In this document: in pieces, positions 15,832 through 47,144 of the stretch
Layout: the number at the start of each line of letters is the position of its first letter
Numbering within the stretch: position 1 is the first letter of the stretch
Source: Polyangiales bacterium
Lineage (GTDB): Bacteria; Myxococcota_A; Polyangia; Polyangiales; Ga0077539
Assembly: GCA_044229975.1 (NCBI GenBank)
Contig: JBGARZ010000009.1
Coordinates: 219,947-283,946 of the forward strand
Direction: 5' to 3'
DNA length: 64,000 nt
Notes under the pieces: model-generated
What the model saw: only the letters and a program-made list of their open reading frames with translations
Told to the model about the DNA's origin: nothing
Databases searched by the model: none
Program-made: the position numbers and the translations under genes

Positions 15832-15834
15832 CGC

Positions 15835-23919: not shown

Positions 23920-23947
23920 CACAGGGTGAATGGTCGCATGCGGACGC

Positions 23948-27144: not shown

Positions 27145-27147
27145 GCG

Positions 27148-30895: not shown

Positions 30896-33757
30896 TCACC
30901 CCATCCCCGGCAGTCCCCGTTGCGCCGGCGTCTCCGCCACGCTCGACGCCTCGCCCGCAGCCGCCGCCAGCTTCGCCACTTCGGGCCACGCGGTCACCAG
31001 CCCGTTGTAGGCCAGCGCCTCCGCCGCCCACTTCTTCCGTTCGCACAGGCTGTACAGCCGATAGGCCAGCTCGCGCGCCGCCTCGCCCTGCGCGCCTACC
31101 CGCGCCAGCAGCTCGCCCGCCGCCCGCTCGCCCTTCGCCTCCAGCGCGCGGATCAGGTGCTGCGCCACCTCCCACACCGTCCGCCGCGCGTCTGTCGCCG
31201 GGTCCCAGTCGGCCGACAGCTCCGCCCGCGTGAGCAGCGCCACCTTGCCGCGCGACGACCGCAGGACGCCCGCCTCCACCAGCCCCGCCACCGAGGTGTT
31301 CTTCGCCCGCGCCAGCGTGTCGGCACTCCCGAACTCCGCCTCGCCATACTGGTGCTGCTCGAACCACGCGAGGGCGCAGCGCGTGTCGGCGTCGAAGTCA
31401 CCCTCCTGCTCGGAGAGCACCTCGTCGAGCACCTGGTTGATGATCTGTAGCGCGGTGCGAACGCTCATCGCCGACCCGTCGGACTCCAGCACCTTCGCGT
31501 ACGACGAGAACACCGCCATCCCCGGTCCGATCGCCGCCTGCGCGAAGTCCACCGGGGCGATGTTGCCCTGCTGGAGCAGCTTGAGGTCCCGCGGGAGCGT
31601 GCGCTTCAGGGCGCGCAGGAAGTCCGATCGGGTCGCCGAGGGGGCGTCGTCCGCGCGCTTGCGGCAGACGAGTACGATCGAGGAGGCGAGGGCGTTGATG
31701 TGCTTCTTGATGTTACCGGTAAGCTCGGTCCTTACCGGCCAAGTCCCGTGCACGACGAATCCTGAACCCAATAGACTGGAAAGCATCGTCTCCCAACCAG
31801 ACGACGCAACCACGCCACCACCGGCATCGCCCTCGCCATCAGACTCAACCTGCTTGAATGCGTAGTAGACCGCGAGTGGATACCCTTCGACTTGACGCTC
31901 GTATATCCGACCGAATGCGATACGAATCTTCTCTTCGAAGAAGTCCTTCGCCCTCGCCAGATCGCCACCGTGTCGGTGCTGCGAAGCGACCAATTCCGAG
32001 TTCTTGGGGACGGTGATTGTGGCAAAAAGGTTCGGATACAACAGGCCCACCGAACGCCTGAGCCATACGTAGAAAAAATCCGAGAGGTCGGCGTAGCCGA
32101 TGTTGTCATAATACGGCGGATCGGTGCTCACCACGACCCCTTCGGGACCGCCCGGCTCACAGGCATCGGCTTGAAAGGCTCTCCCAAGGCATGTCAAATC
32201 GGCGGGAATTCTAAGCAGGTTCTGGTAGACACCGTCGACTTGGCTAATAAAATTTCCACTAGACTCGCTGAACGGATTCCCCTCGGCATAGTCCCACGTC
32301 ATCGTGAGCGCCTGCCTCGCAAACGTACTGGTGATCGTCTCGTACTTAGCTCCCGAGTGCCACGAGCACAGCATCGAAGAATAGTTCACCAGACGGTCAA
32401 CAGCGAATGACAAGAACACAGCAATCGCTTCCCCGTAACCAGCCTTGGCAGGATCACTCAACGGGCGGACGTCCTTCAATACCTCCGCTCGCACCTCTTC
32501 GACGAGACCGGAGAGGGTCGCGAGGGTGTTCAGTTGCCGAGGTGTGAAGGCGTCTGCCCATTCGTACATACCGTACATTGGCAACCGATCGACATCATGG
32601 CTCGGTGTCGTCACCCTCTCAGACGGACGCCAATGCGACTGTGCCGACGCTGCGATTGATGCGTGGCTATCGATGGACGACAGATATATCCTGGCCCTTT
32701 TGCCCTCGGCAACGATCGCGGTAGGAATCGATCCCATGCGTCCCGCCTGCGCCTCCTCGCGCACATAAGAGAGCTCAAATTCGTTCTTGCAGGCAAGGCA
32801 ATATGCGCTGCGAGCGCGAACGGTCCCCACTGACTCGCCAGCACCCTTTTCGACGCGAAATCCACCTCTACCTCCGAGCGCCTTGGGGTCGGCGACCAGG
32901 TGATATTCTTTGCCAGGCTTTGTCGCGAGGGATAGTGATCGAATCAGCGGCGCGGTGGCATTGCATGCGGGATTCGGACACTTCACCGTCCGAGCCCAAA
33001 GCCACGCGATGACCGTCGCCTCTCCGCCGCCGTGCTCCGTCGATAGTGTCACCTTCGGATACAGGTGTCCAATCCGCTTGAAGGCCTCATCCCTCATCCA
33101 CGTCCCGTAATACCGGACGTCCTCCGCGAGCCCCTCGGCGCCCTTCCACGTCCGCATCTTCTGGTTGCGCTGCGACTCCGGGTTCACCGGCGGCTGCCCC
33201 GCGAACTTCGGCGGAATCTCGATCAATGCCTTGTTGATCAGCACCGCCACCGGGTTGAGGTCCGTCGCGATGGCCCGCAGCCCGAGCCGCTGCGCCTCCA
33301 ATGGAATGGTCCCGCCCCCCGCGAAGGGGTCGTGCACCGGCGGCAGCGCCGTCGCGAGGTACTGATTGACCACCGCGGCCGCGGGCTTCTCCCCGAGGAT
33401 CACGTCGGCCCGCGGGTCGTCCCGGTGGAAGCGCGCGTGCGACTGCGCGATCTCCCGCCGCGCCTCGTTGATGATGGCCTCGTCGTGGCTCGCCTCCCAC
33501 GGCACCATCCGCTCGATCAGCCGGAACAGCCGCTCGCGCTCGCGCTTCTGCCCGGCCTCATCGCCCTGGAGTTCGGGCCAGGTGCTCGGGTCATCCACGA
33601 GTTGCGCGAACAGCACCGCGCGCGCCGCCGCCAGCGGTCGCCGCGCCCACCAGAGATGGAGCGTCGAGGGGTGCCCGTGGCGAATGGACTTCTCCCTCCC
33701 GGCGGCGGCGTTGATGGCTTCGAGCGGGAGCGCGACCTCGATGAGCTTCTTGGGCAT
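30896..33757 (-). CDS. DUF1156-type DNA methyltransferase (N6-adenine or N4-cytosine, DPPY class)
   Basis: N-terminus MPKKLIEVALPLEAINAAAGREKSIRHGHPSTLHLWWARRPLAAARAV (DUF1156 signature). Motif I DPFAGGGTIPLEA. Motif IV STDPPYYDNIGYADLSDFFYVWLRR. Confidence 0.75.
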   Translation of the reverse strand: MPKKLIEVALPLEAINAAAGREKSIRHGHPSTLHLWWARRPLAAARAVLFAQLVDDPSTWPELQGDEAGQKRERERLFRLIERMVPWEASHDEAIINEARREIAQSHARFHRDDPRADVILGEKPAAAVVNQYLATALPPVHDPFAGGGTIPLEAQRLGLRAIATDLNPVAVLINKALIEIPPKFAGQPPVNPESQRNQKMRTWKGAEGLAEDVRYYGTWMRDEAFKRIGHLYPKVTLSTEHGGGEATVIAWLWARTVKCPNPACNATAPLIRSLSLATKPGKEYHLVADPKALGGRGGFRVEKGAGESVGTVRARSAYCLACKNEFELSYVREEAQAGRMGSIPTAIVAEGKRARIYLSSIDSHASIAASAQSHWRPSERVTTPSHDVDRLPMYGMYEWADAFTPRQLNTLATLSGLVEEVRAEVLKDVRPLSDPAKAGYGEAIAVFLSFAVDRLVNYSSMLCSWHSGAKYETITSTFARQALTMTWDYAEGNPFSESSGNFISQVDGVYQNLLRIPADLTCLGRAFQADACEPGGPEGVVVSTDPPYYDNIGYADLSDFFYVWLRRSVGLLYPNLFATITVPKNSELVASQHRHGGDLARAKDFFEEKIRIAFGRIYERQVEGYPLAVYYAFKQVESDGEGDAGGGVVASSGWETMLSSLLGSGFVVHGTWPVRTELTGNIKKHINALASSIVLVCRKRADDAPSATRSDFLRALKRTLPRDLKLLQQGNIAPVDFAQAAIGPGMAVFSSYAKVLESDGSAMSVRTALQIINQVLDEVLSEQEGDFDADTRCALAWFEQHQYGEAEFGSADTLARAKNTSVAGLVEAGVLRSSRGKVALLTRAELSADWDPATDARRTVWEVAQHLIRALEAKGERAAGELLARVGAQGEAARELAYRLYSLCERKKWAAEALAYNGLVTAWPEVAKLAAAAGEASSVAETPAQRGLPGMG

Positions 33758-33977
33758 TGGGCGGCGCGCAGTCTGCGCCCCGACGCGTCCCGCCGGGAAG
33801 AGGGAACCACCCCGCGGCCTCGGCGCCGTTCCTCCATCGGGGGACTGCTTTGCCCCTGGTGGCGCTGACTATTCCTGACCGGTGGCTGCGGGCCGGTGCG
33901 CCACGAGTTCGGCACGAGCGCACCTGCATCAAGGAGCTTGCGTTCGCTCCCTTTTGTCCGCTCTCGGGGCGGTCCGC

Positions 33978-34502
33978 TCAGCTTGCGACACGCGGCGGAT
34001 CATGGCCCATGGTCACGCGGTAGAGGTCGCAGAGGTCCACGAGCTGGGCTGCGGCGATCGCGACCTGGCGCACATGGTACTGGGGTTCTCCCTCCCAGCC
34101 GTCCTTCCCTTCGTTGACGTCCACCCGGAAGTGCCGACGCGCCTCCTTCGCGCGCTCGGCGATCAGCCGTCCGAGACCCTCCATCGCGTCGAGCGCCACG
34201 CACGCCATTGTCTCGCCCTCGCCGTGCTCGCCCGGGTCGACCGCCATCGCGCCGCATTGCACGAAGACCACCTGGGCGAGCGCGAGCTCCGGGCACCAGA
34301 GATCGACCGACGCATCGAGGGCGTTCTGCGTGACCTCGGCCAGCACCGGGTGCGCCTCCAACCAGGTCAGCGGGCGGGTGAGAGCCGCACGATCCTTTCG
34401 GGCGCCACCAGCCTCCGTCGATGGAGGCACTTCAGCGGTGGACCTGGCGGACGAGCGGGCGGAACCCTCCGCCTCGGGGCGAGCCCTTCGCGGCGCGCTC
34501 AC
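33978..34502 (-). CDS. Hypothetical small protein (about 174 aa) of the operon
   Basis: GTG start overlaps the upstream stop (GTGA). GC3-biased. The track ORF's N-terminal 65 aa overlaps the upstream gene and is judged spurious. Confidence 0.4.
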   Translation of the reverse strand: MSAPRRARPEAEGSARSSARSTAEVPPSTEAGGARKDRAALTRPLTWLEAHPVLAEVTQNALDASVDLWCPELALAQVVFVQCGAMAVDPGEHGEGETMACVALDAMEGLGRLIAERAKEARRHFRVDVNEGKDGWEGEPQYHVRQVAIAAAQLVDLCDLYRVTMGHDPPRVAS

Positions 34503-35203
34503 GCGTCCGCCCCCGACCGGAACCACGTGCTTCCACGGTGGATCACGGGCACACCGCGTCTTGCCGCGAGCATCAGCCCATCGACTACCCGCCAGAGCCG
34601 CCGCAGGAGCAGGGCGATCTCCTGTTGGCGCTCGGACATCTCCATGATGTTCCCGGCGACCTTGCTCTCGTCCTCGGTTCCGATGGTCGCGTCGCACAGG
34701 CGGTCGACGATGCTGTCGATGTGGCGTCGCGCGGGCCTCGTGATTCGGCGGGCAACTCGCGCGAGCTGCTCGGCGTAGTCGAGCGGCCCGAGCCGGAAGA
34801 CCACACGCGTACCGAGATCGAACACCAGCAACTCTCGCGCGAGCTTCGGATCGCCGGCGTAGTAGGCGAAGAGCTTCAGGTCCCAGAGCAGCGAGGCCGG
34901 GACCTTCGTCCGGCGCGCTGGCGCGGCGGTCTTACTCGCGGGCGGCGGCGTGCGATGCGCTACGGCCGACGGCGATGTCGGTTGCAACTGGATGAGTTTC
35001 CCGCTGACGGGAGCGGCCTTCGTGGTCGTAGCCACGGGGACTCTCGGCTGTCCGATCGGCGGGCGAACGTCGCCCGCAGCGCCCAGTGGCGCGGCCTTGT
35101 TGTGCACGGTTCCCGTCTCCTGCGGCGCACGTTGGACAACCCCAGCGCCGTCGGAGCGACCCAACGATGGCTGCGTCGCGGATGTTCCACGGACAGTCGT
35201 CAC
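34499..35203 (-). CDS. Hypothetical protein (234 aa) between the SNF2 helicase and the methyltransferase; candidate DUF3780-type partner
   Basis: GC3-biased ORF 19 nt downstream of the SNF2 gene stop. DLKLFAYYAGDPKLARELLVFDLGTRVVF... No motif recognised; the DUF3780 idea comes only from known gene-neighbourhood context. Confidence 0.4.
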   Translation of the reverse strand: MTTVRGTSATQPSLGRSDGAGVVQRAPQETGTVHNKAAPLGAAGDVRPPIGQPRVPVATTTKAAPVSGKLIQLQPTSPSAVAHRTPPPASKTAAPARRTKVPASLLWDLKLFAYYAGDPKLARELLVFDLGTRVVFRLGPLDYAEQLARVARRITRPARRHIDSIVDRLCDATIGTEDESKVAGNIMEMSERQQEIALLLRRLWRVVDGLMLAARRGVPVIHRGSTWFRSGADA

Positions 35204-35222
35204 GAGCGGGTTCGGAGTGGGA

Positions 35223-38200
35223 TTATCCCAGCGCGACGACCACGACCGGCTCCTCGAAACCCGGCATCGCCCCAGCGAGTCCGTCGAGCACTACTGGAAT
35301 CCCGGTCGTCCCCTCGTCGTTGACCTCGACGACCACCAGCGCGACCCGCTCGGGCGCGTGCCGCAGCGCCATAGCCTCCGAGCGCCGCAGCGTCACCGAC
35401 GCGGCCCCCTCGGGCACCCCGCGCACGACCCAGAACCGCAGCGCCCCCGTCGCCGGTTCGCGCGCCTCGAGGTCCCACCCGGCCCGCTGCGCCCGCACGT
35501 CGCGCAGGTCGCGGCCGCGCAGCGCCTCGGCCCGCATCACCGCCGCGATCGCCACCTCGTCGCGCCCCCCGTCGAGCGCCAACCCACCTACGAGCCCGGC
35601 AGGGACCACCGGCACCACCGCGACGATATCCACGTCGCCCTCCGCCACGGCGCGCAACCCGGCGAGCTCGGCGCGGCGCTCGAACATCCGACCGCGCAGG
35701 GTCTTCTCCAGCTCGGACTGCTGCTGGGCCTTCTTGGCACCGTGGTGCCCACGCGCCTGCGCCTCGACCTTCAGCCGGTGGGCCTGCTGCGTCTCGGCCG
35801 AGAGCCGCGCCATCACCTCGCGCTCGATGACGTCGATCGCCTTCTCATGGCGCGTACGCACCGCCCGACGCCACGGCACGAGCAGCGCTTCATCGATCGC
35901 GGCGCGCAGGGAATCCGGCCGCGCCGGAAGCGCGGGGTCCATCGCCGCGAGGCACGCGCGCTCCTCGTCGGTGGTCGATCGAAGGTCGAGATGGGCGGGT
36001 CCCGCGAGGGGACGGACGGAGCCGTCGGCGCGGACGGCGACGAGCCACGCAGCTTCGTCGAGGCGCGCCCCTTCGCCGTGGGTGAGCGCCTGCGAGACGG
36101 CGACGAGCCACCAGGGCTCGCTCCCCCCGTCGAAGGGATCGACGTACGCCGCGGGCGTGTGCAGCGCGTCGCGGGCCACAGCGAGGGCGAGCGCGCGGGC
36201 CCACGGGTGTGCGGCGGTCAGGCGCACGACCTCGTCGCCAGCAAGGGGATCGAAGCCGATGGGAGGCGGCCGTTGCGGGAGGGTGGCGTCGTGCGCGCGC
36301 CACGCGGGCGGGGTGAAGTTGACGGCGTAGCGCCCTTCACTGCGGGGGAAGGCGCGGCCCTGTATCGACCCGAGCGCGGCGACGAACCAGGGCTCCAGGC
36401 AGGCGCGCCCGAGCTGCTGGCCGGCGGCGCGGTCCATGTCGTCGCGGAGGGCGCGTAGCTGGCGGGCAGCGGCCTCGCGCGCGGCGGTCTCATCGACGCG
36501 TCGCGAGAACTCGTGCTGGCGGGTGACGGCCTCATCCACCTGGCGGCCGACGGCGTCGCCGGCGCGGGCGGCCTCGTGGCGTCCGCCGCGCACCGCGTCG
36601 AGGAGGAAGTCCCGCAGCGGGCGCTCGCTGAAGGCCGCGCCGAGGACGTCGAAGACCTGTCCGCGGAGGGACTTCGACTCTTCTTCGAGGCGACGGCAGA
36701 GGGCCTGGAAGACCTCGGTCTCACGGGTGCCGTCGGCGACGAGGTTCCAGAGCTGGCAGGTCTCGGTCTGGCCGATGCGGTGCACGCGGCCGAAGCGCTG
36801 CTCGATGCGCGCGGGGCTCCAGGGGATGTCCCAATTGAGCACGAGCGAGGCGCACTGGAGGTTGATGCCCTCGCCCGCGGCGTCGGTCGCCACGAGGAAC
36901 TCCGTGCCCTCCTCGTCGGCGAAGGCACGCTGCGCGGCGAGGCGCTGGGCGCGGTCCATGGAGCCGTCGATGGTGACGACGCACTCGGCGCGGCCGCGCA
37001 GGTTGGCCAGGAAGTCGGCGACGTAGGTGAGGGTGTCGCGGTGCTCGGTGAAGACCACGAGCTTCCGCCGCCGGCCGAGGCGGTCGACCATGGCTGCGGA
37101 GGTGAGCAGCTCGGCGACGCGCTCGCGTTTGCAGTCCACCTTGGCCTGGAGCAGCGCGCGGCTCTCGACCTCGAGCTCGGCGAGGCGATCGACCTCGTCG
37201 GCGAGCTCGTCGATCGAGCGCGCCGCGGTGGCGCCTTCGGCGAGGGCGCTCTCTTCGGCTTCGGTCTCGGCGCCCGGGAGGTCGAGGGCGGACTCGAGCT
37301 CGTCGTCGGAGAGGCTCTCCTCCTCGGCGCGGAACGAGCGGGCGCGCAGGGCGGCGAGGCGCGCGGCGAGCTTCGCGCGGCGCGAGGAGAGCGAGCGGTG
37401 GATGGCGCTCGGGCTCGACGCGAGGCGGCGCTGGAGCACGGTGAGGGCGAAGCCGACGGTGCGTCCGCGGCCCTCGGTGGCCTCGGCACGGTCGAACTCG
37501 GTGCGCACATACTGGGTGACGGACTCGTAGAGGGACTTCTCCCGGGGTGAGAGCGCGAAGTTGACGGTGACCGCGCGGCGCGGGGGGAAGAGGGCCGAGC
37601 CGTCGAAGCGGACGAGGTCTTCCTTGAGGCGGCGGTGGATGAGGTCGTCGATGCGCGGGGTGTGGACGCCGTCGCGGAACTTGCCCGCGAAGCGGTCGCC
37701 GTCGACAAGCTGGAGGAAGGCCTGGAAGCGCTCCTCGCTGCCGTCGTGGGGAGTGGCACTCATCAGGAGGACGTCGCGAGCCTCGGCGGCGACGCGGCGC
37801 GCGAAGCTGAAGCGCTGGGTGGGGTCGAGGCGCTGGCCGTTCCAGCCGGTGGAGAGGCGGTGGGCCTCGTCGAAGACAGCGAGGTCCCAGTGCACGGCGG
37901 CGACGCGGGCGACGAAGGCCGGGTCGCGGGCGACCTGGTCGAGGCGCACGACGGCGAAGGGATGCTCGACGAACCACTCGTCGGCGCGGACGAGGTCGGT
38001 GCGCGTGGGGAGGTCGAAGCGGAGGTCGAAGCGGGTCCAGAGCTCGTCGCGCCACTGGTCAACGAGCGAGCCGGGCGCAACGACGACGCAGTTGCGGAGG
38101 AGACCACGGGCGCGCATCTCGGTGATGAGCAGGCCGGCCATGATGGTCTTGCCGGCGCCGGGGTCGTCGGCGAGCACGAAGCGCAGCGGGCGTTGTACGA

Positions 38201-38345
38201 GGAGGGTCTCGTAGACGGCGGAGACCTGGTGGGGCAGCGGATCGATGCGCGCGACGTGGACGGCGAGGCGCGGGTCGAAGAGCGCCGCGTGGAGGACGCG
38301 CCAGGACTCGAGGGCCAGTCGCACGGGGTCGGGGGTGGTTCCCAT
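35223..38345 (-). CDS. SNF2-family helicase (DrmD / MADS-helicase-like) with a long C-terminal extension
   Basis: LADDPGAGKT, DEAHRL, MSATPHDGS, helicase-C motifs FLVATDAAGEGINLQ and QRFGRVHRIGQ. 1040 aa. Confidence 0.8.
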   Translation of the reverse strand: MGTTPDPVRLALESWRVLHAALFDPRLAVHVARIDPLPHQVSAVYETLLVQRPLRFVLADDPGAGKTIMAGLLITEMRARGLLRNCVVVAPGSLVDQWRDELWTRFDLRFDLPTRTDLVRADEWFVEHPFAVVRLDQVARDPAFVARVAAVHWDLAVFDEAHRLSTGWNGQRLDPTQRFSFARRVAAEARDVLLMSATPHDGSEERFQAFLQLVDGDRFAGKFRDGVHTPRIDDLIHRRLKEDLVRFDGSALFPPRRAVTVNFALSPREKSLYESVTQYVRTEFDRAEATEGRGRTVGFALTVLQRRLASSPSAIHRSLSSRRAKLAARLAALRARSFRAEEESLSDDELESALDLPGAETEAEESALAEGATAARSIDELADEVDRLAELEVESRALLQAKVDCKRERVAELLTSAAMVDRLGRRRKLVVFTEHRDTLTYVADFLANLRGRAECVVTIDGSMDRAQRLAAQRAFADEEGTEFLVATDAAGEGINLQCASLVLNWDIPWSPARIEQRFGRVHRIGQTETCQLWNLVADGTRETEVFQALCRRLEEESKSLRGQVFDVLGAAFSERPLRDFLLDAVRGGRHEAARAGDAVGRQVDEAVTRQHEFSRRVDETAAREAAARQLRALRDDMDRAAGQQLGRACLEPWFVAALGSIQGRAFPRSEGRYAVNFTPPAWRAHDATLPQRPPPIGFDPLAGDEVVRLTAAHPWARALALAVARDALHTPAAYVDPFDGGSEPWWLVAVSQALTHGEGARLDEAAWLVAVRADGSVRPLAGPAHLDLRSTTDEERACLAAMDPALPARPDSLRAAIDEALLVPWRRAVRTRHEKAIDVIEREVMARLSAETQQAHRLKVEAQARGHHGAKKAQQQSELEKTLRGRMFERRAELAGLRAVAEGDVDIVAVVPVVPAGLVGGLALDGGRDEVAIAAVMRAEALRGRDLRDVRAQRAGWDLEAREPATGALRFWVVRGVPEGAASVTLRRSEAMALRHAPERVALVVVEVNDEGTTGIPVVLDGLAGAMPGFEEPVVVVALG

Positions 38346-38372: not shown

Positions 38373-40946
38373 CTAGACCACGATGGCCGCGAGAGTGGTC
38401 TCGACCTCGTCGAGGCCGGGCCGCGCTCCGGGCTCGTGGGTGGTGCATGCGCGCGAGAGCTTCACCCACGACGGCAGCATCACCTTGTCGACGTCGGTCT
38501 GGCCGGTGAGCAGATAGGCGAGCAGCTTGCCGAAGGCGTAGACGTCCGCGCTCGGGTGGGCCTCGGCGCCGTCGACCTGCTCGGGGGGCGCGAAGCCCGG
38601 CGTGCCGAGTCCTGCAAAGGTGCGGTGCTGCGTGACGAGGCGGCGGAGGTTCTTGGCGATGCCGAAGTCTCCGAGCTTCCAGCGGCCGCCTACGCAGAGC
38701 ACGTTCTCTGGCTTGAGGTCTCGGTGCACGACGTCGAGGGAGTGCAGCTCACGCAGGGCGGCGAGCACGGTGAGCGCGATGGCCTTCGACTCGGCAGGCG
38801 TGAGCGGCTCGGGCTTCGCGCGGACGAAGGCGTCGAGGGTGCCGCCATCGGCGAACTCGGTGAGCAGAGCCACGTGGGTGTCGTTGTGCTCGATGCCGAG
38901 CACCCGCAGCACGCCGTCGGAGTCGGCGCGGTGCAGCCGCGTGTAAACGTCGATCTCCCGGCGCAGCGCGTCGCCCGCGAGCCCGTCGACCGGGACCTTC
39001 TTCATGAACGCGATGGTGCCGTCGCGCCCGCGCACCTTGAAACCATCGGACATGCCGCCGCCGGGCATTCGCGCGAGCACCTCGTACTGATCGAAGAGCG
39101 TCTCGGTGGGGCGGCGGTCTTCGCTCACCACCGTCGGCAGCGGGCCGCCGAAGGTGCGACGGGTCTCCTCGGAGTCGCGGCCGTTGATGGGCTTGCCGGT
39201 CAGGCGCTCGACGCCGTCGAGGAGGCGTCGGGCGCGCTCGCGGTAGAAGGTCGCGAAGTCGTCCTGCCGCAGCGAGCGGGCGTCCATGCAGTGGGTGCGG
39301 AGGAGCTCGTCTAGGTCATTGGCCTTCACTCCGCCGCGCTCGACGCGCGCGAGGTACACCGATGGGTTGACCAGGCCGAGCCGCTTCCAGGTGCGCGAGG
39401 TGCGCGGCGTTTTGTTGAGGATCGACTTCTGGATCGACGGCGGAAACTGCCCCGTCTTCCCCGTGAACCACGAGTCGGGGAAGGCGTGGTGGAGGTCGAC
39501 GTCCTGGGCGAAGTAGGTCGACCGCTCGATCTCGTCGCCCGACAGAAGGTCGCGGGCGCCACGTTGCAGCAGCAGCGCCATGAAACCCTTGTAGGCGGCG
39601 CTGAGTCGCATCGAGAGGGTGGCGAGTCGCGACGGTGAGAAGTTGCAGTCGCGCACGGTGGATGGCTCAGGGCCGCCGTCGATCCAGAGCAGCACCTCGG
39701 AGATGTCCTTGCCGAAGCGCGTCTCGGTGGTTCCGCCGTAGAGCTCGCCGAAGACGCCGCACCAGTACCAGCGGAGGAGCTTCTCCCGCGCGGTGGGCTC
39801 GTCGACGCGCGGACCGAGCGCCGCCGCGATGGCCGCGAAGGGGATGAGCTGGCTCTTGTAGGGGAGGTACCGGGTGTCGAAGATGCGCTCGCGTTCGAGG
39901 AGCCGCGACGCGGTGACGAAGCCCTCGTACACGGCATCGGCGTGGACGTTGTACTCCTCCAGCGGGAGGTTGAGCATGTCGACGCGCCGGCAGCCGACGT
40001 GGATCCGGCGGTCGTTGGCGCCGCGCTTCCACGACGAGAGCAGGGAGATGGCCTGGAGGAAATCGGTGGCGATGATCTCACCGAGGATGCCGTGAGCGGC
40101 GAGCGCGCGCTGGCGCTTGTCCCACTCGACGCGCATGTCGACCGAGCGCGCGGCGTAGGTGGCGGTGACGAGTTCGAAGACGTCGAGGGGCTTGCCGCCG
40201 GTGTTCACCTTCTCGAAGACCATGCAGATGGCCTGTCGCGAGGTGGTGCGCCCGAGCTCGATGGAGGGCACGCGGTACTGCTGAATCGACTGGATCACCT
40301 CGCGCTCAAAGCGGTTCCAGAGTTTCGCGATCTCGGCCGCGTGCTGGTGAAAGTCGCTCAGCCCGTAGCGCCAGTCCTGACTCGCGGCGACGTCGAAGAC
40401 GGTGGCGACGGGAATGCAGAGGTTCTCGTAACACTTCTCCGGGGTCGACAGGTCGAGGTCGATGGTCCGATTGAAATTGCTCCGTACCTGCAAGGAAGGG
40501 TCGAGCGCGAGCACGGCTTCCTTCCGCTCGATGCCCTCGTCGAGGCACTTGCGGATGTCGAAGAAGTACACCCGCTTGATGGCGTTGCCCTTGGTGTCGA
40601 GAGTGGGCACCGGCACGCCCGCCCGGAAGGTCGAATAGAGGGCGGTGAGGCGCTGCTGCCCATCCAGGATGAGGCGCCGCTCCAGCCCCGGGTTTTCGGG
40701 CGCGCCCTCGACGGAGCGGGCCTTGAACTGCACGTCGCCCCCGCACTCGAGGAGCAACACCGCGCCGACAGGCCAGGCCTGCGACACCGACGCGACGAGG
40801 TCACTGATGCGATCGTCGTCCCAGACCCACGAGCGCTGGAAGTCGGGAAGCTGGAGCACCCCGCGGTGGATCTCTTCGAGGAGATCGCGGAGGGGCGTCT
40901 CGGCCGGACGAAAGGTCATCTGTGCGGGCATCGGGGCGCATGACAC
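38373..40946 (-). CDS. GmrSD-like type IV restriction enzyme (DUF262 ParB-like plus DUF1524 His-Me nuclease) fused to a C-terminal Ser/Thr protein kinase
   Basis: DUF262: LPDFQRSWVWDDDRISDL...LILDGQQRLTAL. DUF1524: DLHHAFPDSWF. Kinase: AFMK, HRDLKPENV, DFG, GTPGFAPPE. Confidence 0.7.
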   Translation of the reverse strand: MSCAPMPAQMTFRPAETPLRDLLEEIHRGVLQLPDFQRSWVWDDDRISDLVASVSQAWPVGAVLLLECGGDVQFKARSVEGAPENPGLERRLILDGQQRLTALYSTFRAGVPVPTLDTKGNAIKRVYFFDIRKCLDEGIERKEAVLALDPSLQVRSNFNRTIDLDLSTPEKCYENLCIPVATVFDVAASQDWRYGLSDFHQHAAEIAKLWNRFEREVIQSIQQYRVPSIELGRTTSRQAICMVFEKVNTGGKPLDVFELVTATYAARSVDMRVEWDKRQRALAAHGILGEIIATDFLQAISLLSSWKRGANDRRIHVGCRRVDMLNLPLEEYNVHADAVYEGFVTASRLLERERIFDTRYLPYKSQLIPFAAIAAALGPRVDEPTAREKLLRWYWCGVFGELYGGTTETRFGKDISEVLLWIDGGPEPSTVRDCNFSPSRLATLSMRLSAAYKGFMALLLQRGARDLLSGDEIERSTYFAQDVDLHHAFPDSWFTGKTGQFPPSIQKSILNKTPRTSRTWKRLGLVNPSVYLARVERGGVKANDLDELLRTHCMDARSLRQDDFATFYRERARRLLDGVERLTGKPINGRDSEETRRTFGGPLPTVVSEDRRPTETLFDQYEVLARMPGGGMSDGFKVRGRDGTIAFMKKVPVDGLAGDALRREIDVYTRLHRADSDGVLRVLGIEHNDTHVALLTEFADGGTLDAFVRAKPEPLTPAESKAIALTVLAALRELHSLDVVHRDLKPENVLCVGGRWKLGDFGIAKNLRRLVTQHRTFAGLGTPGFAPPEQVDGAEAHPSADVYAFGKLLAYLLTGQTDVDKVMLPSWVKLSRACTTHEPGARPGLDEVETTLAAIVV

Positions 40947-40978: not shown

Positions 40979-41878
40979 TCAGGCCGCGCGCGAGAAGCGT
41001 TCGAAGCGTTGCGCGAGGAACTCTTCACGGGGCCGCACGCTCGACGGCCAGCGGACGCTCGCGCGGTCGAAGGGCTTGAGCGCTGCGTCGAGCACGGGCC
41101 CCGCACTCGGCGCCGCGGCGAGCGAGGGCGCGAGGTGGATGGTGCCCGCGTGCGAGACGCCCAGCAGGTCGAGGTCAAAGACGTCGCGGTGGAGGAGGCA
41201 GAGCGGGAGGGCGTTGTCCTCCTCGGGCGCTCCGCGGCGGGCGCCGTCAGGCCAGACCACCGAGGCGTCGAGGAGTGCCTGCGTTGAGAGCGAGCAGACG
41301 GCACAGCGATGCTCCCAGGCCGCGAGGGTGCGGTCGCGAAGGATGACGTGCTCCCAGCGGGGTTTGGCGACGACGGTGCGTCGGCGGAGTTCGGCGGTGG
41401 TGACGCGCGAGGCGAGGTCGTCGGCGGTACCGATGACGACCTCGGCGGTCAGCGCGCTCCGATCGATGCCGCTCGCATACGCCGGAAACAGGGCGAGGTA
41501 GCGGGCGGGTGCCACGCCAAAGAAGTAGATCATCGGCGCGTCGAGGCTCGCCGAGTATTCGAGTGCGTTGTTGTCGAAGGCGTCGGGATCGGTGCCCTGG
41601 AAGCGATAGACGAAGCCGCCCTCCACGGTGAGGTCGTCGTAGCGCGCGACTCGCCCCGCCTTCGGGATGGTCGACTTGATCGAGAGTGCGCCGGCGACCA
41701 TCTGCTTCGGCCGGAAGATGCCCCGCGCCCGATTGGCGAAGAGCACCCGCTCACCGCGGAACTGGAAGCCTTCCGCGATGACCTCCCACGGCAGGATCTC
41801 GCCGTATCGGCGGACCAGCGTGCGCAGTCCATCGAAGGCCGCGAGTCGAATCTCCAGATCGGGATCGGTGACGCTCAT
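40979..41878 (-). CDS. HNH endonuclease with an N-terminal uncharacterised (possibly modification-sensing) domain
   Basis: C-terminal HNH: HRCAVCS...WPDG...DNALPLCLLHRDVFD. Start chosen at MSVTDPD (41878); the upstream extension is in a GC-rich artefact frame. Confidence 0.55.
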   Translation of the reverse strand: MSVTDPDLEIRLAAFDGLRTLVRRYGEILPWEVIAEGFQFRGERVLFANRARGIFRPKQMVAGALSIKSTIPKAGRVARYDDLTVEGGFVYRFQGTDPDAFDNNALEYSASLDAPMIYFFGVAPARYLALFPAYASGIDRSALTAEVVIGTADDLASRVTTAELRRRTVVAKPRWEHVILRDRTLAAWEHRCAVCSLSTQALLDASVVWPDGARRGAPEEDNALPLCLLHRDVFDLDLLGVSHAGTIHLAPSLAAAPSAGPVLDAALKPFDRASVRWPSSVRPREEFLAQRFERFSRAA

Positions 41879-42114
41879 CGGACGCCAGGCTACCGGCGAG
41901 CAGGGCGACGTCAACGACTGGGCGGAAGGGTTGCGGTGCTGCCGGAGTACCGTGGCGATCTCGGTTCTCACTTCTCTCGACCTCGTCCGATGCGGCCGAG
42001 CCCACTGCCAATCGGTGGGCGAGATGTCAGATCGTTCACCGGAGGGGCGTCGAACCGGTGCTTTGTCCAAGAACACCGGTGGTGGGGCGCAGGCCCACCA
42101 AGGATGCTCGCCGC
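41879..42114. promoter_or_regulatory. Divergent intergenic region; likely promoter(s) for the minus-strand defence super-operon and the plus-strand enzyme cluster
   Basis: Only sizeable non-coding gap between the two oppositely oriented gene arrays. AAGGA is 10 nt upstream of the 42115 ATG. Confidence 0.35.
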
Positions 42115-44196
42115 ATGTCCAACTCGCTTCCACTGCCGCTCTCCCAGCAGATCATGGCGTGGCTCGTCCAGGCACTCGGTCTCGATACCGCGCCCTCGCG
42201 GAACCGCCGCCTGTCCTCCGGCACGCTCAAGGGTGCCCGGCTGGGCAAGATCATCGCGCGAAGCTGGCGCGATCTCGTGAAGGAAGTGACCGCGCTGCTC
42301 GGTCTTCCGCAGGTCGCACACGAACTGTGGCCGACTCTGCTCCGCCGTTGGGACGCCACCGTGAGCGCGATGCACGCTCCGGAGCTCGACCCTGGCGACG
42401 CGCTCCTCCCGGTGCTGCGCATGGCCGTCCCGCGGATCGGGATCCGACTGGGCGCGCTGGCCGCGCTCGCCTGCTCCGCGTCGGGAGCTTCGAAGGACCG
42501 ATGGGAGTGGCTCTGTGATCCCCTCGACCCGCACCTGCCGCGACGGGTGCTGGAGGGATTGCTCTCGGTGCATCGTCCCGAGTGGCGGACCTGGGAGCAG
42601 CGCTACGAAAAGCTCAGAGGCGCAGTCGACCAACGAACGATCGAGAGCTGGAACGCCGGGGCCATCCTGGGGCCCAAGGTCATCGCGAAGATCGCCGCAG
42701 CGGTGCACCCCAGAGTCGCAGCACCGCTCCGTTGGGCGCGGGCGGCGATGGTCTTGCGGCGCGACCTGGAAGAGTCGGTCGACGCCGCGGCGGTGGACTC
42801 CTGGCGGGACGCCGTCCGACAGGTCGCGTCCTCGACCCTGGCGACCCTCATGGATCCGATGGCGGTGTCCCGCGTCGCCGAACTCTGGACCGAAGAGATC
42901 GCCCACGCGAGCGGTCCAGAGGTCACGGTCCTCCTCGCCAACCTTGCACAGATGGCCGGCGTCGAAACGCGTGCGGACGACACGGCTCCGTGGCTCGAGC
43001 GAGCCGCAGCAGCGAAGTTCAGCGATCGCTCCCCGAGGCGGGCGGAGACCCATGCCGTACTCCTGCTGACGATCCTGCAGCCGCACGCCCGACTCGTCAG
43101 CGCGGCGATCGGACGCGACAACTCCCAGAACGCGGAGGCGCTGGCCTCGGCGGATCTCGGGCGCTGGCTGATGGGCGAGTGGGAGCTTCTGTCGATGCTC
43201 CGTCGCCTCGCGCGAGGGAAGCCGATCGCGTTGCAGCTTGACGGTCGCCTCAGGACGACCGGCCCGGTCCCCGACGAGGTGCGCGACGCCGCAACGATGG
43301 AGCTCGAGCGGGCGGCCCGTTTCGTCCAGAGTCGAGAAGACGTCGCACGGTCGGACGAGGCCGAGAGCACCGTGTTCTCCTTCCTCTTCGACGGAAACGG
43401 CGATGCGTACCGGGCGGCGCGCTCCGCCTCGATGTTGGAGTTTCCGCTCGCGGTGATCGATCGAGGCGTGGAGCGCTCGATGTCGGAAGAAGACGTGCGC
43501 GCGATCCCCGAACTCGCCTGCGCGCGGGCGCGTCGGCTGGCGGAGGGCGGCGATGTTATCGCCGCGATGGCCATGCTCGAATCTGTAGGCGTCCATGATC
43601 ATCTCCCGGATCGGTCGGCGCGACGCGATCTCTCTCGGGCACTGATCGCGGTCGCGCACGCGCAACTGGACCAACACTACGAGAGTGTTCGAGAGTGGCT
43701 GGAGGTAAGGGCGTCGTTCATCGTCGGGGATGACGCGCTGGCGATCGGTGACGCGCTCATGGCGCTCGCCGACCAGATCGTCTCCGCACTCTCCGCGCTG
43801 AGTTCACTGCACGACTCCGCGGCCTTCATGCTCGCCCTACCCGGTGTTGCCGAGCCACCCATCGACTCCTTTGTGATGTCCTTCCCGTTTGCCCTGCGAT
43901 GCGAAGGCGTCTTTCGAGCACTCGACCGCGAGAGCACGCTGCGGCCCGACTCGCGGACCTCCGCGGCGGTGCTTGCTTCTTGGGCAGAGAAGAACCCGAA
44001 CGACGGCGAAGTGGCCGCGCTCCTCGCCGTCTGGGCTCGATTCAACGGCAGCTCTCCGGCGACGCAAGCCAAGGCCGACAAGGGCTGTGAGCACCTCGGC
44101 ACCGCGCCGCTGCGTGACCAATGGATCAATCGCCTCAAGCGCGACCTCTCTTTGATGATGAACGCCGGTTCTGGGCTGAAGGCGGGGGAGGCATGA
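42115..44196 (+). CDS. Hypothetical alpha-helical protein (693 aa), first gene of the plus-strand cluster
   Basis: ATG with an upstream AAGGA. High GC3. No recognisable domain. Confidence 0.5.
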   Translation: MSNSLPLPLSQQIMAWLVQALGLDTAPSRNRRLSSGTLKGARLGKIIARSWRDLVKEVTALLGLPQVAHELWPTLLRRWDATVSAMHAPELDPGDALLPVLRMAVPRIGIRLGALAALACSASGASKDRWEWLCDPLDPHLPRRVLEGLLSVHRPEWRTWEQRYEKLRGAVDQRTIESWNAGAILGPKVIAKIAAAVHPRVAAPLRWARAAMVLRRDLEESVDAAAVDSWRDAVRQVASSTLATLMDPMAVSRVAELWTEEIAHASGPEVTVLLANLAQMAGVETRADDTAPWLERAAAAKFSDRSPRRAETHAVLLLTILQPHARLVSAAIGRDNSQNAEALASADLGRWLMGEWELLSMLRRLARGKPIALQLDGRLRTTGPVPDEVRDAATMELERAARFVQSREDVARSDEAESTVFSFLFDGNGDAYRAARSASMLEFPLAVIDRGVERSMSEEDVRAIPELACARARRLAEGGDVIAAMAMLESVGVHDHLPDRSARRDLSRALIAVAHAQLDQHYESVREWLEVRASFIVGDDALAIGDALMALADQIVSALSALSSLHDSAAFMLALPGVAEPPIDSFVMSFPFALRCEGVFRALDRESTLRPDSRTSAAVLASWAEKNPNDGEVAALLAVWARFNGSSPATQAKADKGCEHLGTAPLRDQWINRLKRDLSLMMNAGSGLKAGEA

Positions 44197-44547: not shown

Positions 44548-44793
44548 ATGACCAGGCAGATTCTCATTGCGGGGTCGTGCGGCCTCGTCGAACGCGCTCG
44601 GCCCCCCTCGCTCACCGCCACGGGCTACGCCGTAGGTGGTTTCGACGTGGCGCCGCCGCGCACCTACGACGTCGCGCGCTTCGTGGGCAACCCGTCGCAC
44701 GCCCTCGACCGGCTCGACTGGCGCCCGACGACTCCGCTGTCCGAGAGCCTCGACCGACTGATCACGACGTTCCGCGAGGAGGGATCCCAATGA
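44548..44793 (+). CDS. Micro-ORF resembling the fused N- and C-termini of an NAD-dependent epimerase/dehydratase; gene remnant or small coupled ORF
   Basis: MTRQILIAGSCG resembles the Rossmann N-terminus; YDVARFVGNPSHALDRLDWRPTTPLSESLDRLITTF resembles the epimerase C-terminal tail. Stop overlaps the next ATG (ATGA). RBS AAGGGA. Confidence 0.3.
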   Translation: MTRQILIAGSCGLVERARPPSLTATGYAVGGFDVAPPRTYDVARFVGNPSHALDRLDWRPTTPLSESLDRLITTFREEGSQ

Positions 44794-47144
44794 AGGTGCT
44801 CCAGGTCATCCACGGCTACCCCATGCGCTACAACGCCGGGTCCGAGGTTTACACGCAGACTCTCTGTCACGGCCTCTCCGACGCAGGCCACGAGGTGCAC
44901 GTCTTCACCCGCGAGGAGGACTCTTTCGCCGAAGACTTCGCGATTCACCGCGAGCGCGACGCCGACGATTCGCGCGTAGCGCTCCACGTCATCAACAACC
45001 CGCGCAGCCGCGACCGCTACCGTCACGCCGGCATCGATGCCCGCTTTGTCGAGGTGCTCGAATCCCTCCGCCCCGACGTGGTGCACATCGGGCACCTCAA
45101 CCATCTGTCGACCTCGATCGTGCGCGAGGCAGCGGCCCGCGGTGTTCCGGTGGTGTTCACGCTGCACGACTACTGGGTGATGTGCCCGCGCGGACAGTTC
45201 ATGCAGATGCACCCCGCCGACGGAGGCGAACTCTGGGCCGCCTGCGACGGGCAGCAGGATCGCAAGTGCGCCGAGCGTTGCTACGCGCGCTACTTCTCGG
45301 GTGCCTCCGACGAGTACGAGGAGGACGTCCGCCACTGGGAGCGCTGGGTCGCGCGCCGGATGCAGGACCTCCGCGAGGTCGCCGATCTCGTCGATCTGTT
45401 CATCGCTCCGACCCGCTACCTCCACGACCGCTACCGCGACGAGTTCGGTCTGCCCGAGCGCAAGCTGGCTCATCTCGACTACGGCTTCGACCTCGCGCGA
45501 TTGCGCGGAAGACAGCGCCAACCCGGCGAGCCCTTCACCTTCGGCTACATCGGGACGCACATCCCGGCCAAAGGGATCCACCAGCTCATCGCGGCCTTCG
45601 GCGACGTGCGAGGCGACGTGCGTCTCCGCATCTGGGGGCGCCCGCGCGGGCAGGACACCGAAGCCCTGCGAGCGTTGGCGGCGGCGCTCCCCGGCGACGC
45701 GGCGAGCCGGGTCGAGTGGACCTCGGAGTATCGCAATCAGGACATCGTCGCCGAGGTCTTCGATCGGGTCGACGCCATCGTGGTCCCTTCGATCTGGGTC
45801 GAAAACTCGCCTCTCGTCATCCACGAGGCCCAGCAGTCGCGCGTGCCGGTCATCACCGCCGACGTCGGCGGGATGGCGGAGCTCGTTCACCACGAGGTCA
45901 ACGGCCTCCTCTTCGAACATCGCAACCCGCGAGCGCTCGCCGCGGCCATGCAGCGCCTGGCGGACGACCCCGCCCTCGCCCGCGAGCTCGGCGCGCACGG
46001 CTACGTCCATTCGAAGGACGGCGACGTGCCCGACCTGAACGAGCACGTCCGCGCGATCGAGGGGCTCTATCGTCGCGTGATCGCGCAGCGCGAATCGACC
46101 CGCGTGACGCACGCGGCGGGGCCGTGGCGCATCACCTTCGATACCAACCCCGATACCTGCAATATGAAGTGCGCGATGTGCGAGGAGCACTCGCCACACA
46201 GCCTGTCGCAGCTCGGGCGGAAGAAGGAGGCGCAGCCGCGGCGGGTGATGCCGATCGAACTGCTCGAGCGCATCGTCGTCGAGGCCGCGCCCAAAGGGCT
46301 GCGCGAGGTGATCCCTTCGACGATGGGTGAGCCACTGTTCTACGAGCACTTCGAGCGGATCATCGGGGTCTGCAAGGCCCATGGGGTGATGCTCAACCTC
46401 ACGACCAACGGCTCCTTCCCCCGGCTCGGCGCGCGGGCGTGGGCCGAGCGGCTCGTGCCCATTACCTCCGACATCAAGGTCTCCTGGAACGGCGCCACGA
46501 AGCACACCCACGAGGCGGTGATGATCGGCTCCAACTGGGAGCAGTGCCTGGCCAACGTCCGCACGCTCATCGAGGTGCGCGACGCCCACGCGGCGGCGGG
46601 CGGCAACCGCTGCCGCGTGACCTTCCAGATGACCTTCCTTGAGACCAACGTGGGCGAGCTCGCGGACATCGTCCGTCTCGCGGCGAAGTTGGGAGTCGAT
46701 CGACTCAAGGGACACCACCTCTGGGCGCACTTCGGGGAGATCGAGTCGCTCTCGATGCGACGCGACCTCGGGTCCATCCGCCGATGGAACGACGCCGTCC
46801 GCGACGCCCAGGCGGCCGCGCGCTCCGACCGCCTGCCCGATGGGCGCGAGGTGCTCCTGGAGAACATCTTCCCCCTCGCTGAGGACGCCACGCAAGATCT
46901 CGCGCCGGGCGGCCCGTGTCCCTTCCTCGGTCAGGAGGCATGGGTCAGCGCGCTCGGTCGCTTCGACCCGTGCTGTGCGCCCGACGCCCAGCGACGGACG
47001 CTCGGCGAGTTCGGATCGCTTCATGATCAGAGTCTCAACGCGGTCTGGCAGTCGGAGCCCTACCGCAAACTTGTCGCGACCTACCGCAACCGCGCTCTCT
47101 GCCTCTCCTGCAACATGCGCCGACCGGCCGCGGAGTCCCGATGA
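44790..47144 (+). CDS. Fusion protein: GT4-family glycosyltransferase (GT-B) plus radical SAM domain with a SPASM-like C-terminus
   Basis: GT4: EAQQSRVPVITADVGGMAELVHHEVNGLLFE. Radical SAM: CNMKCAMCEE (CxxxCxxC). Auxiliary Cys motifs: CPFLGQEAW, RFDPCCAPD, CLSCN. Strong RBS GAGGAGGG before the ATG at 44790. Confidence 0.7.
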   Translation: MKVLQVIHGYPMRYNAGSEVYTQTLCHGLSDAGHEVHVFTREEDSFAEDFAIHRERDADDSRVALHVINNPRSRDRYRHAGIDARFVEVLESLRPDVVHIGHLNHLSTSIVREAAARGVPVVFTLHDYWVMCPRGQFMQMHPADGGELWAACDGQQDRKCAERCYARYFSGASDEYEEDVRHWERWVARRMQDLREVADLVDLFIAPTRYLHDRYRDEFGLPERKLAHLDYGFDLARLRGRQRQPGEPFTFGYIGTHIPAKGIHQLIAAFGDVRGDVRLRIWGRPRGQDTEALRALAAALPGDAASRVEWTSEYRNQDIVAEVFDRVDAIVVPSIWVENSPLVIHEAQQSRVPVITADVGGMAELVHHEVNGLLFEHRNPRALAAAMQRLADDPALARELGAHGYVHSKDGDVPDLNEHVRAIEGLYRRVIAQRESTRVTHAAGPWRITFDTNPDTCNMKCAMCEEHSPHSLSQLGRKKEAQPRRVMPIELLERIVVEAAPKGLREVIPSTMGEPLFYEHFERIIGVCKAHGVMLNLTTNGSFPRLGARAWAERLVPITSDIKVSWNGATKHTHEAVMIGSNWEQCLANVRTLIEVRDAHAAAGGNRCRVTFQMTFLETNVGELADIVRLAAKLGVDRLKGHHLWAHFGEIESLSMRRDLGSIRRWNDAVRDAQAAARSDRLPDGREVLLENIFPLAEDATQDLAPGGPCPFLGQEAWVSALGRFDPCCAPDAQRRTLGEFGSLHDQSLNAVWQSEPYRKLVATYRNRALCLSCNMRRPAAESR

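Follow-up and report, generated by a model that had tools for sequence, protein, structure and literature searches.

The window analysed here, 64,000 nucleotides of contig JBGARZ010000009.1 from a Polyangiales bacterium, holds a minus-strand gene (38373-40931) in which a GmrSD/BrxU-like scaffold, comprising a DUF262 NTPase domain and an HNH domain, is fused to a Hanks-type Ser/Thr kinase, and which lies directly upstream of the HmaA-type SNF2 helicase gene of an Hma defence locus. By analogy with characterised relatives, we propose that the scaffold acts as a sensor and the kinase as the conserved output, and that in the subclade containing the window copy phosphorylation, not DNA cleavage, would likely be what the Hma locus uses as its effector step, or else serve to switch HmaA or HmaC, a reading to which we give roughly an even chance of being correct. 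The case for phosphorylation in this lineage is that the HNH site is eroding and that the gene has become a fixed partner of an HmaA whose own nuclease motif is mutated.

The ORF listing and its translation place an open reading frame (ORF) without interruption at 38373-40946. The first-pass annotation had described a single 857-residue ORF, and it is indeed one uninterrupted frame, but it runs on the minus strand and encodes 852 residues from its ATG, the figure of 857 being counted from an alternative GTG at 40946. The identical 852-residue database protein begins at the ATG at 40931 ('MPAQMTF'), as do the homologues, all of which start 'MP.QMTF'; we therefore take this ATG as the true start and number residues according to the 852-residue protein throughout. 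Pfam recognizes two domains, GmrSD_N/DUF262 (E 9e-28) and Pkinase (E 3.4e-31). The DUF262 domain, a ParB/Srx-fold NTPase, occupies residues 7-265 (40137-40913) and carries the motifs DFQR, DGQQR (nucleotides 40650-40664) and FEKVNTGG. It is followed by an all-helical connector (residues 266-470, 39522-40136), the HNH core with its DUF1524-like beta-beta-alpha-Me layout (residues 471-530, 39342-39521) and, in the predicted model, a set of C-terminal scaffold helices (residues 531-600, 39132-39341) that are kept in the unfused relatives and at whose equivalent those proteins end. A flexible linker (residues 601-614, 39090-39131), the least conserved segment of all, with a predicted local distance difference test score (pLDDT) below 50 at residues 604-609, leads into the kinase domain (residues 615-852, 38376-39089). 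The AlphaFold pLDDT is 90.9 for the full-length protein and 87.9 for the N-terminal part. All of the motifs first quoted for this protein (DGQQR, HHAFPDSWF, HRDLKPEN and DFG) are present together with DFQR, 'APE' taking the form A-P-P-E. The GC content is 69% for the window as a whole and, at third codon positions (GC3), 0.92 for the gene, which matches HmaA, HmaC and native genes; a sigma-70 promoter scan found none and is uninformative at 69% GC.

The kinase domain has every catalytic residue in place. The glycines G625/G626, K644 (39000-39002), E659, H736-R737-D738, K740 and N743 (the HRDLKPEN motif at 38703-38726), D755-F756-G757 (38661-38669), E784 of the PPE motif, D796 and R837 are all present, and the full set of Hanks-kinase features is found: the Gly-rich loop, the VAIK lysine, the alphaC glutamate, HRDxKxxN, DFG, the APE glutamate, the alphaF aspartate, the alphaH-I arginine and the bilobal fold. 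Foldseek comparison with solved kinases gave template-modelling scores of 0.7-0.79, up to 0.79 over ∼265 columns. The catalytic residues are retained in 32 of 32 fused proteins, the two glycines of the Gly-rich loop being the sole exceptions to invariance, and a pseudokinase is rejected on the invariance of all the catalytic residues. Judged from its sequence, the C-terminal domain is thus a bona fide and catalytically complete Hanks kinase, as the first-pass annotation had it; the loss of the lysine, HRD or DFG residues that would have contradicted that claim was not seen.

At the domain level the kinase matches PADLOC and NCBIfam models of defence kinases, namely mad6 (E 2.6e-37, model positions 45-253 of 659, that is, the kinase domain only), PD-T4-6 (E 3.5e-33), Stk2 (E 3e-20) and PglW (E 1e-10). 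The kinases nearest to it in the library are no housekeeping enzymes but form the C-terminal part of conflict-type proteins, and the partners that carry a kinase of the same clade include BrxL_N with BrxL_ATPase, a DUF4011 superfamily 1 helicase with an MTES restriction endonuclease, ResIII with a TnsA-like nuclease, UvrD, an MZB/DUF1998 protein, a dynamin-like GTPase, a HerA/FtsK ATPase and a PLD nuclease. The top-scoring matches that looked like standalone kinases (P0121-P0124) are contig-end fragments of fused proteins, and the truly different architectures comprise only a family of ∼320 residues and the larger fusions. This distribution is the pattern expected of a swappable effector or output domain. 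In the database BrxL-kinase fusions (P0330, P0154 and P0162), a kinase of this clade (∼46% identical) replaces the Lon-like protease domain, and the ∼320-residue family (P0125-P0146, also from the database) joins this kinase clade, at 52-58% identity, to a conserved 85-residue N-terminal domain, 'WSRPYKIVRVLQALGMDVPQRLRRERL...GIEAKIRLR'.

Because the Pfam GmrSD_C/DUF1524 model finds no match in the window protein, we examined the claim of a nuclease domain by other routes. A single-sequence search of the PDB with the fused protein returned kinases only, and a profile of the N-terminal family reached BrxU (7P9K) and SspE; with the N-terminal model, Foldseek aligned BrxU along the entire length (E 6.8e-12) and also matched SspE. 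When residues 425-600 of 19 family members were compared with Pfam, HNH_4 matched 14 and GmrSD_C matched 5, and the window copy matched none of the HNH or GmrSD_C models. The family motif reads [VI]D-I-H-H-x-F-P ... N-K-x-P-x-x-x-x-T-N, with its two asparagines spaced 9 apart, which is identical to the spacing of N169 and N178 in GmrD, where N178 is a metal ligand and N169 is structural (PMC4619093). Position 515 would thus correspond to the metal-binding residues N178 in GmrD and N77 in the Gme HNH, the equivalence of N506/N515 to N169/N178 resting on the identical spacing and on the position of the helix in the model. In that predicted model H481 and H482 lie at the end of a strand and position 515 in the next helix, as in the beta-beta-alpha-Me layout.

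The window protein retains D479, H481, H482 (39486-39491) and N506, and position 515 is tryptophan (39387-39389). The features of GmrSD/BrxU-like type IV enzymes are consequently found only in part: DUF262 with (I/V)DGQQR is there, as is a His-Me/HNH domain after a helical connector, but the catalytic set of the HNH is incomplete, since position 515 is asparagine in 114 of 120 relatives and tryptophan here. By its modelled fold and its NTPase motif the protein belongs to the GmrSD/BrxU superfamily. The DUF262 and HNH fold of the GmrSD-type restriction enzyme that had been proposed therefore stand, whereas the label 'restriction enzyme' is doubtful for the window copy, because the metal-ligand asparagine is replaced by tryptophan and the catalytic histidine pair is gone in its closest relatives.

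These states were compared across 120 sequences, 88 unfused and 32 fused. DGQQR is invariant save for one Q-to-H change in an unfused protein, and all 32 fused proteins keep it. H481, H482, N506 and N515 are invariant in 114 of 114 proteins made up of the 88 unfused and 26 of the fused ones. Six fused proteins have lost N515, which is tryptophan in the window copy, P0002 and P0004 and alanine in P0005-7, and four of them (P0004-7) lack both histidines as well. All six fall in one subclade, that of the window copy, which also holds P0003. Within this subclade no domain is less conserved than the HNH core (mean identity 0.46 versus 0.64-0.73 for the other domains), whereas in the other fused clades it is as conserved (0.66-0.70) as the remaining domains. 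In the four sister proteins without the histidine pair the ORFs are intact and the kinase and DGQQR motifs complete; with the general-base histidines lost while ORF, kinase and DGQQR persist, nuclease activity cannot be what is selected there.

Fusions of this kind are rare. Among the 120 matches listed from a search of 5.8 billion proteins were 32 clusters with the DUF262 plus kinase architecture (∼850 residues, 45-100% identity), the other 88 of the listed matches being unfused proteins of ∼605 residues that are ∼50% identical over the N-terminal 70%. The few fused clusters that carry a source name come from metagenome-assembled genomes (MAGs) of Polyangiales or 'Deltaproteobacteria'. Among 1.84 billion clusters at 50% identity, a query spanning the junction found 8 representatives at E<=1e-30, ∼6 of them full length; a scan of 185,579 species genomes gave more than 586 relatives, with one fused locus among the 80 kept; and IMG/VR viral contigs yielded ∼33 close unfused relatives and no fused ones. 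A metagenome scan with a narrow alignment of the junction returned only four loci. In the literature that could be searched, whose coverage was incomplete, no fusion of DUF262, HNH and kinase was described, and a DUF262-kinase fusion is absent from the domain inventory of the GmrSD family (Machnicka 2015). The first-pass annotation was thus right to call the fusion unusual. It was right, too, in treating it as one gene: a frameshift, a sequencing error or two separate genes are rejected, as 32 clusters share the architecture and the linker region is conserved among them. Neighbour-joining analysis of the N-terminal part groups the fused proteins into one clade that includes a single unfused sequence, so the kinase was acquired essentially once.

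The stop codon of the fused gene lies 27 nucleotides upstream of the ATG of the SNF2 gene, the distance first noted, and that gene (35223-38345, minus strand) encodes HmaA (PADLOC E 1e-255). Helicase motifs I, II and VI of the window HmaA are intact. Alignment with canonical HmaA from plasmids of Meiothermus and Bradyrhizobium, found by tblastn search, shows that HmaA of this subclade lacks the ∼70-residue N-terminal domain, and that the C-terminal PD-(D/E)XK motif reads RFWVVRG (35418-35435) in the window versus the canonical RFIEVKG. The subclade orthologues at three other loci (L002, L090 and L091) show the same change, RFWVVRG or LWIVRG, with E replaced by V or I and K by R. The Pfam nuclease-domain model NOV_C had no match in the window HmaA. 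A homology search with its C-terminal third gave no matches, presumably because low-complexity Ala/Arg-rich sequence filled the list of candidates. Defence mediated by HmaA requires the nickase activity of its C-terminal domain (PMC11232893).

The two remaining Hma genes, the DUF1156 and DUF499 genes that were expected there, follow at a greater distance downstream, and other defence genes are nested between them. HmaB, a DUF1156 N6-adenine methyltransferase (30896-33757, minus strand; PADLOC E 0, Pfam DUF1156), has intact methyltransferase motifs I and IV (FAGGG and DPPY) in a motif scan. HmaC (18055-21399, minus strand; PADLOC E 5e-299, Pfam DUF499 and HEPN_Swt1) is a DUF499 ATPase with an N-terminal Swt1-type HEPN domain, in which the Rx4H motif reads RARISE (21169-21192) versus RNKWAH in Meiothermus, the one canonical sequence compared, so that the catalytic histidine is apparently replaced by glutamate. 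On the other side of the fused gene is an HNH-like gene (40979-42133, minus strand, probable start M86 at ∼41878) that only weakly resembles phosphorothioate-DNA-binding HNH restriction enzymes (NCBIfam E 1e-7; PADLOC HNH E 1e-12). Where the general-base histidine is expected, its sequence is LLDASVVWP (motif at 41249-41269), the expectation for HNH_2-type enzymes at the DASVVWP position presumably being 'AAHIxP'; a 78%-identical copy in L090, likewise upstream of the fused gene, has the same sequence at the motif. Since the HmaA, HmaC and HNH motifs are changed while the NTPase, helicase, methyltransferase and kinase sites are kept, it is the nuclease sites that have been selectively changed.

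Given this architecture, these motif states, the phylogeny and the contexts, we infer by analogy what the protein may sense, how its kinase may be activated, what its substrates may be and how it may be coupled to Hma. In characterised DUF262-HNH relatives the sensed feature is a modified base or a phosphorothioate. As in BrxU, SspE and GmrSD, the scaffold would bind DNA and, on meeting a feature of invading DNA, change its conformation or oligomeric state upon NTP binding or hydrolysis. Engagement or oligomerisation of the scaffold on DNA would then activate the tethered kinase, in which T767 and T771, two conserved residues of the activation loop, would probably be phosphorylated in trans, and the active kinase would phosphorylate phage or host proteins and thereby stop the infection. 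In the window lineage the fused protein may act together with a translocating HmaA that lacks the E and K of its nuclease motif.

The association with HmaA is a property of the window subclade. In 6 of 6 sampled members the fused gene lies directly upstream of an SNF2 gene, with a gap of -4 to +27 nucleotides, and in two of these loci the stop and start codons of the two genes overlap. DNA was available for four of the five relatives, and in these the downstream gene is an HmaA orthologue of 47-83% identity; the orthologues diverge roughly in step with the fused gene. No terminator-like site was found between the fused gene and hmaA on the coding strand, and the two are probably co-transcribed. 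Such juxtaposition with a co-diverging, nuclease-mutated HmaA fits a lineage-specific functional partnership. The first-pass suggestion of coupling to the downstream system is thus partly supported within this subclade but does not extend to the clade, across which the gene is a portable guest. In contrast to the subclade members, 6 of 6 sampled fused members with an intact HNH lie elsewhere: inside a BREX type 2 operon with PglX and PglY on either side, next to a second BREX type 2 locus in divergent orientation, ahead of a class 1 DISARM system, adjoining an Mrr-DEAD helicase and an integrase, in an island of AIPR, UvrD-PD-(D/E)XK and PglZ-like genes, and in one other context. The canonical compact operon of a Meiothermus plasmid consists only of the helicase, the DUF1156 protein and the HEPN-DUF499 protein, without the fused gene. 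Since it is a portable guest that also occurs in BREX type 2, DISARM and other islands, the fused gene is not intrinsic to Hma, nor is it a core component of the Hma / BR type 1 systems.

Several observations weigh against phosphorylation as the output of the Hma locus. PglW is present alongside the fused members of BREX type 2 loci, and the kinase therefore need have no communication with its host system at all. The correlation between context and motif state comes from one clade and is effectively a single evolutionary event, and P0003, nested in the window subclade, retains the full HNH motif. Of the HmaA and HEPN substitutions, only those of HmaA were followed into other subclade loci, the HEPN change of HmaC being that of the window locus. 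Finally, comparison of the window copy with its closest homologue shows stronger conservation in the HNH core than in any other segment, with a ratio of nonsynonymous to synonymous substitution rates (dN/dS) of 0.024, and the HH pair is intact; for these reasons the nuclease could still work despite N515W. The HNH domain of the window lineage is clearly still used for something, which could be residual catalysis or DNA binding. The analysis relied solely on this closest pair and on how the domains rank relative to one another, since strong GC3 bias compresses dS to ∼0.5-0.7 and makes the dN/dS of distant pairs unreliable.

Portability raises the possibility, which we take seriously while thinking it somewhat unlikely, that the gene is a self-contained single-gene defence, its sensor scaffold and its kinase, nuclease or both supplying their own effector, which nests like BrxU/HEC-05 for co-regulation and co-transfer, its place next to hmaA being a historical accident preserved by vertical inheritance with no functional link to Hma. 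This would account for fused relatives in at least 5 unrelated host contexts, for the absence of the gene from canonical Hma operons, and for unfused relatives that neighbour BREX type 1 and Druantia-like genes or are carried by viral or prophage contigs; moreover, GmrSD-like genes are documented as embedding in Hma, BREX and type I restriction-modification systems, usually in the same orientation (bioRxiv 10.1101/2024.01.29.577857; PMC11232893). However, pure hitch-hiking does not predict that erosion of the HNH should coincide with the loss of the nuclease residues and N-terminal domain of HmaA, and the tight, conserved juxtaposition with overlapping stop and start codons in two loci, as well as the roughly parallel divergence of the two genes, also speak against it.

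Conversely, the scaffold might still be an active type IV nuclease that cuts modified DNA as BrxU and GmrSD do, with the kinase as a regulatory add-on, for example gating the NTPase, the nuclease or dimerisation by autophosphorylation. We regard this as quite improbable. The window protein does keep D479, H481, H482 and N506, its HNH core is under the very strong purifying selection described above, 26 of the 32 fused proteins keep the complete motif, and BrxU and HEC-06 require the D/E-H pair for defence (bioRxiv 10.1101/2024.01.29.577857). Nevertheless, the equivalent of the metal-ligand asparagine that is invariant in 114 relatives is tryptophan in the window, the Pfam HNH and GmrSD_C models fail to recognize this copy, and four sister proteins have lost the histidine pair yet keep ORF, kinase and DGQQR. 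That the locus is merely decaying, the substitutions in the fused HNH, HmaA, the HmaC HEPN domain and the upstream HNH-like gene marking early pseudogenisation and the kinase being kept by chance, is highly improbable: four independent nuclease active sites within 25 kb do carry substitutions at catalytic positions and two MAG HmaA orthologues have C-terminal frameshifts (equally explicable as assembly errors), but ORFs of 850-1040 codons stay open in six lineages at 47-88% identity, the fused gene is under purifying selection (dN/dS 0.115 versus its closest homologue), the DGQQR, kinase, helicase I/II/VI and methyltransferase I/IV motifs are all intact, and codon usage is fully ameliorated (GC3 0.92).

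A scaffold that senses and a kinase that responds can be taken one step further, to an extension that we hold only tentatively and think rather unlikely: the Hma locus of this myxobacterial lineage would be nuclease-free, with catalytic residues lost or weakened in each of the HmaA PD-(D/E)XK, HmaC HEPN and GmrSD-like HNH sites and with the methyltransferase, both ATPases and the helicase intact, the fused kinase would be its new effector, and the kinase clade would be a general, swappable effector of defence NTPases, from BrxL, UvrD and HerA to the DUF4011, PLD and MZB proteins. If true, recognition of non-self DNA would be read out by phosphorylation, as abortive infection or signalling, and not by DNA or RNA cleavage. 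Enzymes of the GmrSD/BrxU type are regarded as nucleases gated by NTP, and a fusion that ties a sensor of known fold to a kinase makes it directly testable how a defence kinase senses infection, whether binding of DNA or NTP turns the kinase on, and what it phosphorylates. The window lineage offers a natural experiment in which kinase and NTPase are kept and three or four nuclease sites are mutated; if such a locus still protects, a restriction-type system can exchange cleavage for phosphorylation as its output. Because this kinase clade recurs on BrxL, helicase, HerA and PLD proteins, there may be a broader class of defence proteins with a kinase effector, of which we found no description in the searchable literature.

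The surroundings of these genes hold further features. Between hmaB and hmaC (24529-30831, minus strand) lie an RdrA-like gene (1227 residues, E 1e-8) and an RdrB-like adenosine deaminase gene (871 residues, E 7e-32), whose resemblance to RADAR is distant and far below the NCBIfam cut-offs; the GC3 of the RdrA-like gene (0.65), much below that of its neighbours, suggests a recent acquisition. A gene pair of 383 and 483 residues (21509-24108, minus strand; GC3 0.65-0.69) precedes hmaC, the 483-residue product matching PADLOC PDC-M09B (E 7e-14), and a Druantia type I-like block (6930-18039, minus strand) lies directly downstream of hmaC with DruE (2095 residues, PADLOC E 0), DruD (334 residues) and further large ORFs without matches, such as one of 734 residues at 15835-18039. 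The 1.46-kb gap between hmaA and hmaB (33758-35222) contains overlapping ORFs on both strands that lack a clear coding signal (GC3 0.68-0.81); the single ORF tested matched no family, and the equivalent gap in L001 has small opposite-strand genes. L001 and L002 are loci on different contigs of a Polyangiales MAG (GCA_046351555.1) that holds two diverged pairs of fusion and HmaA genes (P0004 and P0006), with CHAT or caspase-like protease genes upstream of both. On the plus strand of the window, an 855-residue ORF (44577-47144) combines a GT4 glycosyltransferase, including the 'GT4-conflict' Pfam family, with radical SAM/SPASM and has a weak PADLOC match to pVip (viperin-like), and is followed by a WG-repeat/AAA_33 kinase-like ORF (47141-48409).

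Among known systems, the scaffold is most readily compared with BrxU (PADLOC HEC-05; PDB 7P9K), a GmrSD-family type IV enzyme embedded in BREX and Hma, which has the same order of DUF262 with DGQQR, helical connector and HNH and shares the habit of nesting within methylation-based defence operons. Identity is only ∼17%, however, and the HEC-05 models match at about 50-78 bits; BrxU has the motif DHIYP where the fused protein has DIHH..P, an additional 240-residue kinase and, in the window copy, the last HNH asparagine lost. Membership of HEC-05 (50 bits), HEC-06 (20 bits) or PDC-M55C (98 bits, best stretch residues 9-118) is rejected on score and coverage; the unfused relatives also reach only ∼100 bits. 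SspE and DndI (PDB 6JIV/7DRR/7DRI and 9JFL) are phosphorothioate-sensing DUF262-DUF1524 proteins without a kinase, their sequence similarity is very low (E 0.003), and no Ssp or Dnd modification genes were found in the window. GmrSD proper (E. coli CT596 / Eco94GmrSD) has the same DUF262 plus His-Me architecture and the catalytic pattern (D/H)-H...N-x8-N, although its Pfam GmrSD_C model fails on the window copy, and, beyond these two domains, the family is reported to carry DUF4268, DUF4357 and DNA_binding_1 but no kinase (Machnicka 2015).

Kinases are established effectors of defence in Stk2 and KKP (PMC11341870) and in PglW (PMC12839542). With PD-T4-6, Stk2, Mad6 of MADS and PglW of BREX type 2, the kinase domain alone is matched: the N-terminal partner in the fused protein is entirely different, and it has no NERD, pseudokinase or other accessory domains of these proteins. 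PglW itself consists of a NERD nuclease, a pseudokinase, a kinase and a C-terminal winged helix-turn-helix/sensor region (PMC12839542); assignment to PglW is rejected, as this architecture is absent and NF033442 scores 40 bits, on the kinase N-lobe only, against a cut-off of 990. Membership of Mad6, PD-T4-6 or Stk2 is rejected in the same way, with matches to the kinase domain only and 78 bits for NCBIfam MAD6 against a cut-off of 460. Compared with Hma, the DUF499-centred BREX-related type 1 system, the window variant has an HmaA without the N-terminal domain and without the E and K of the nuclease motif, and an HmaC without the HEPN histidine, but its HmaA, HmaB and HmaC are clear, and guest genes, GmrSD-like ones among them, are typical of the system.

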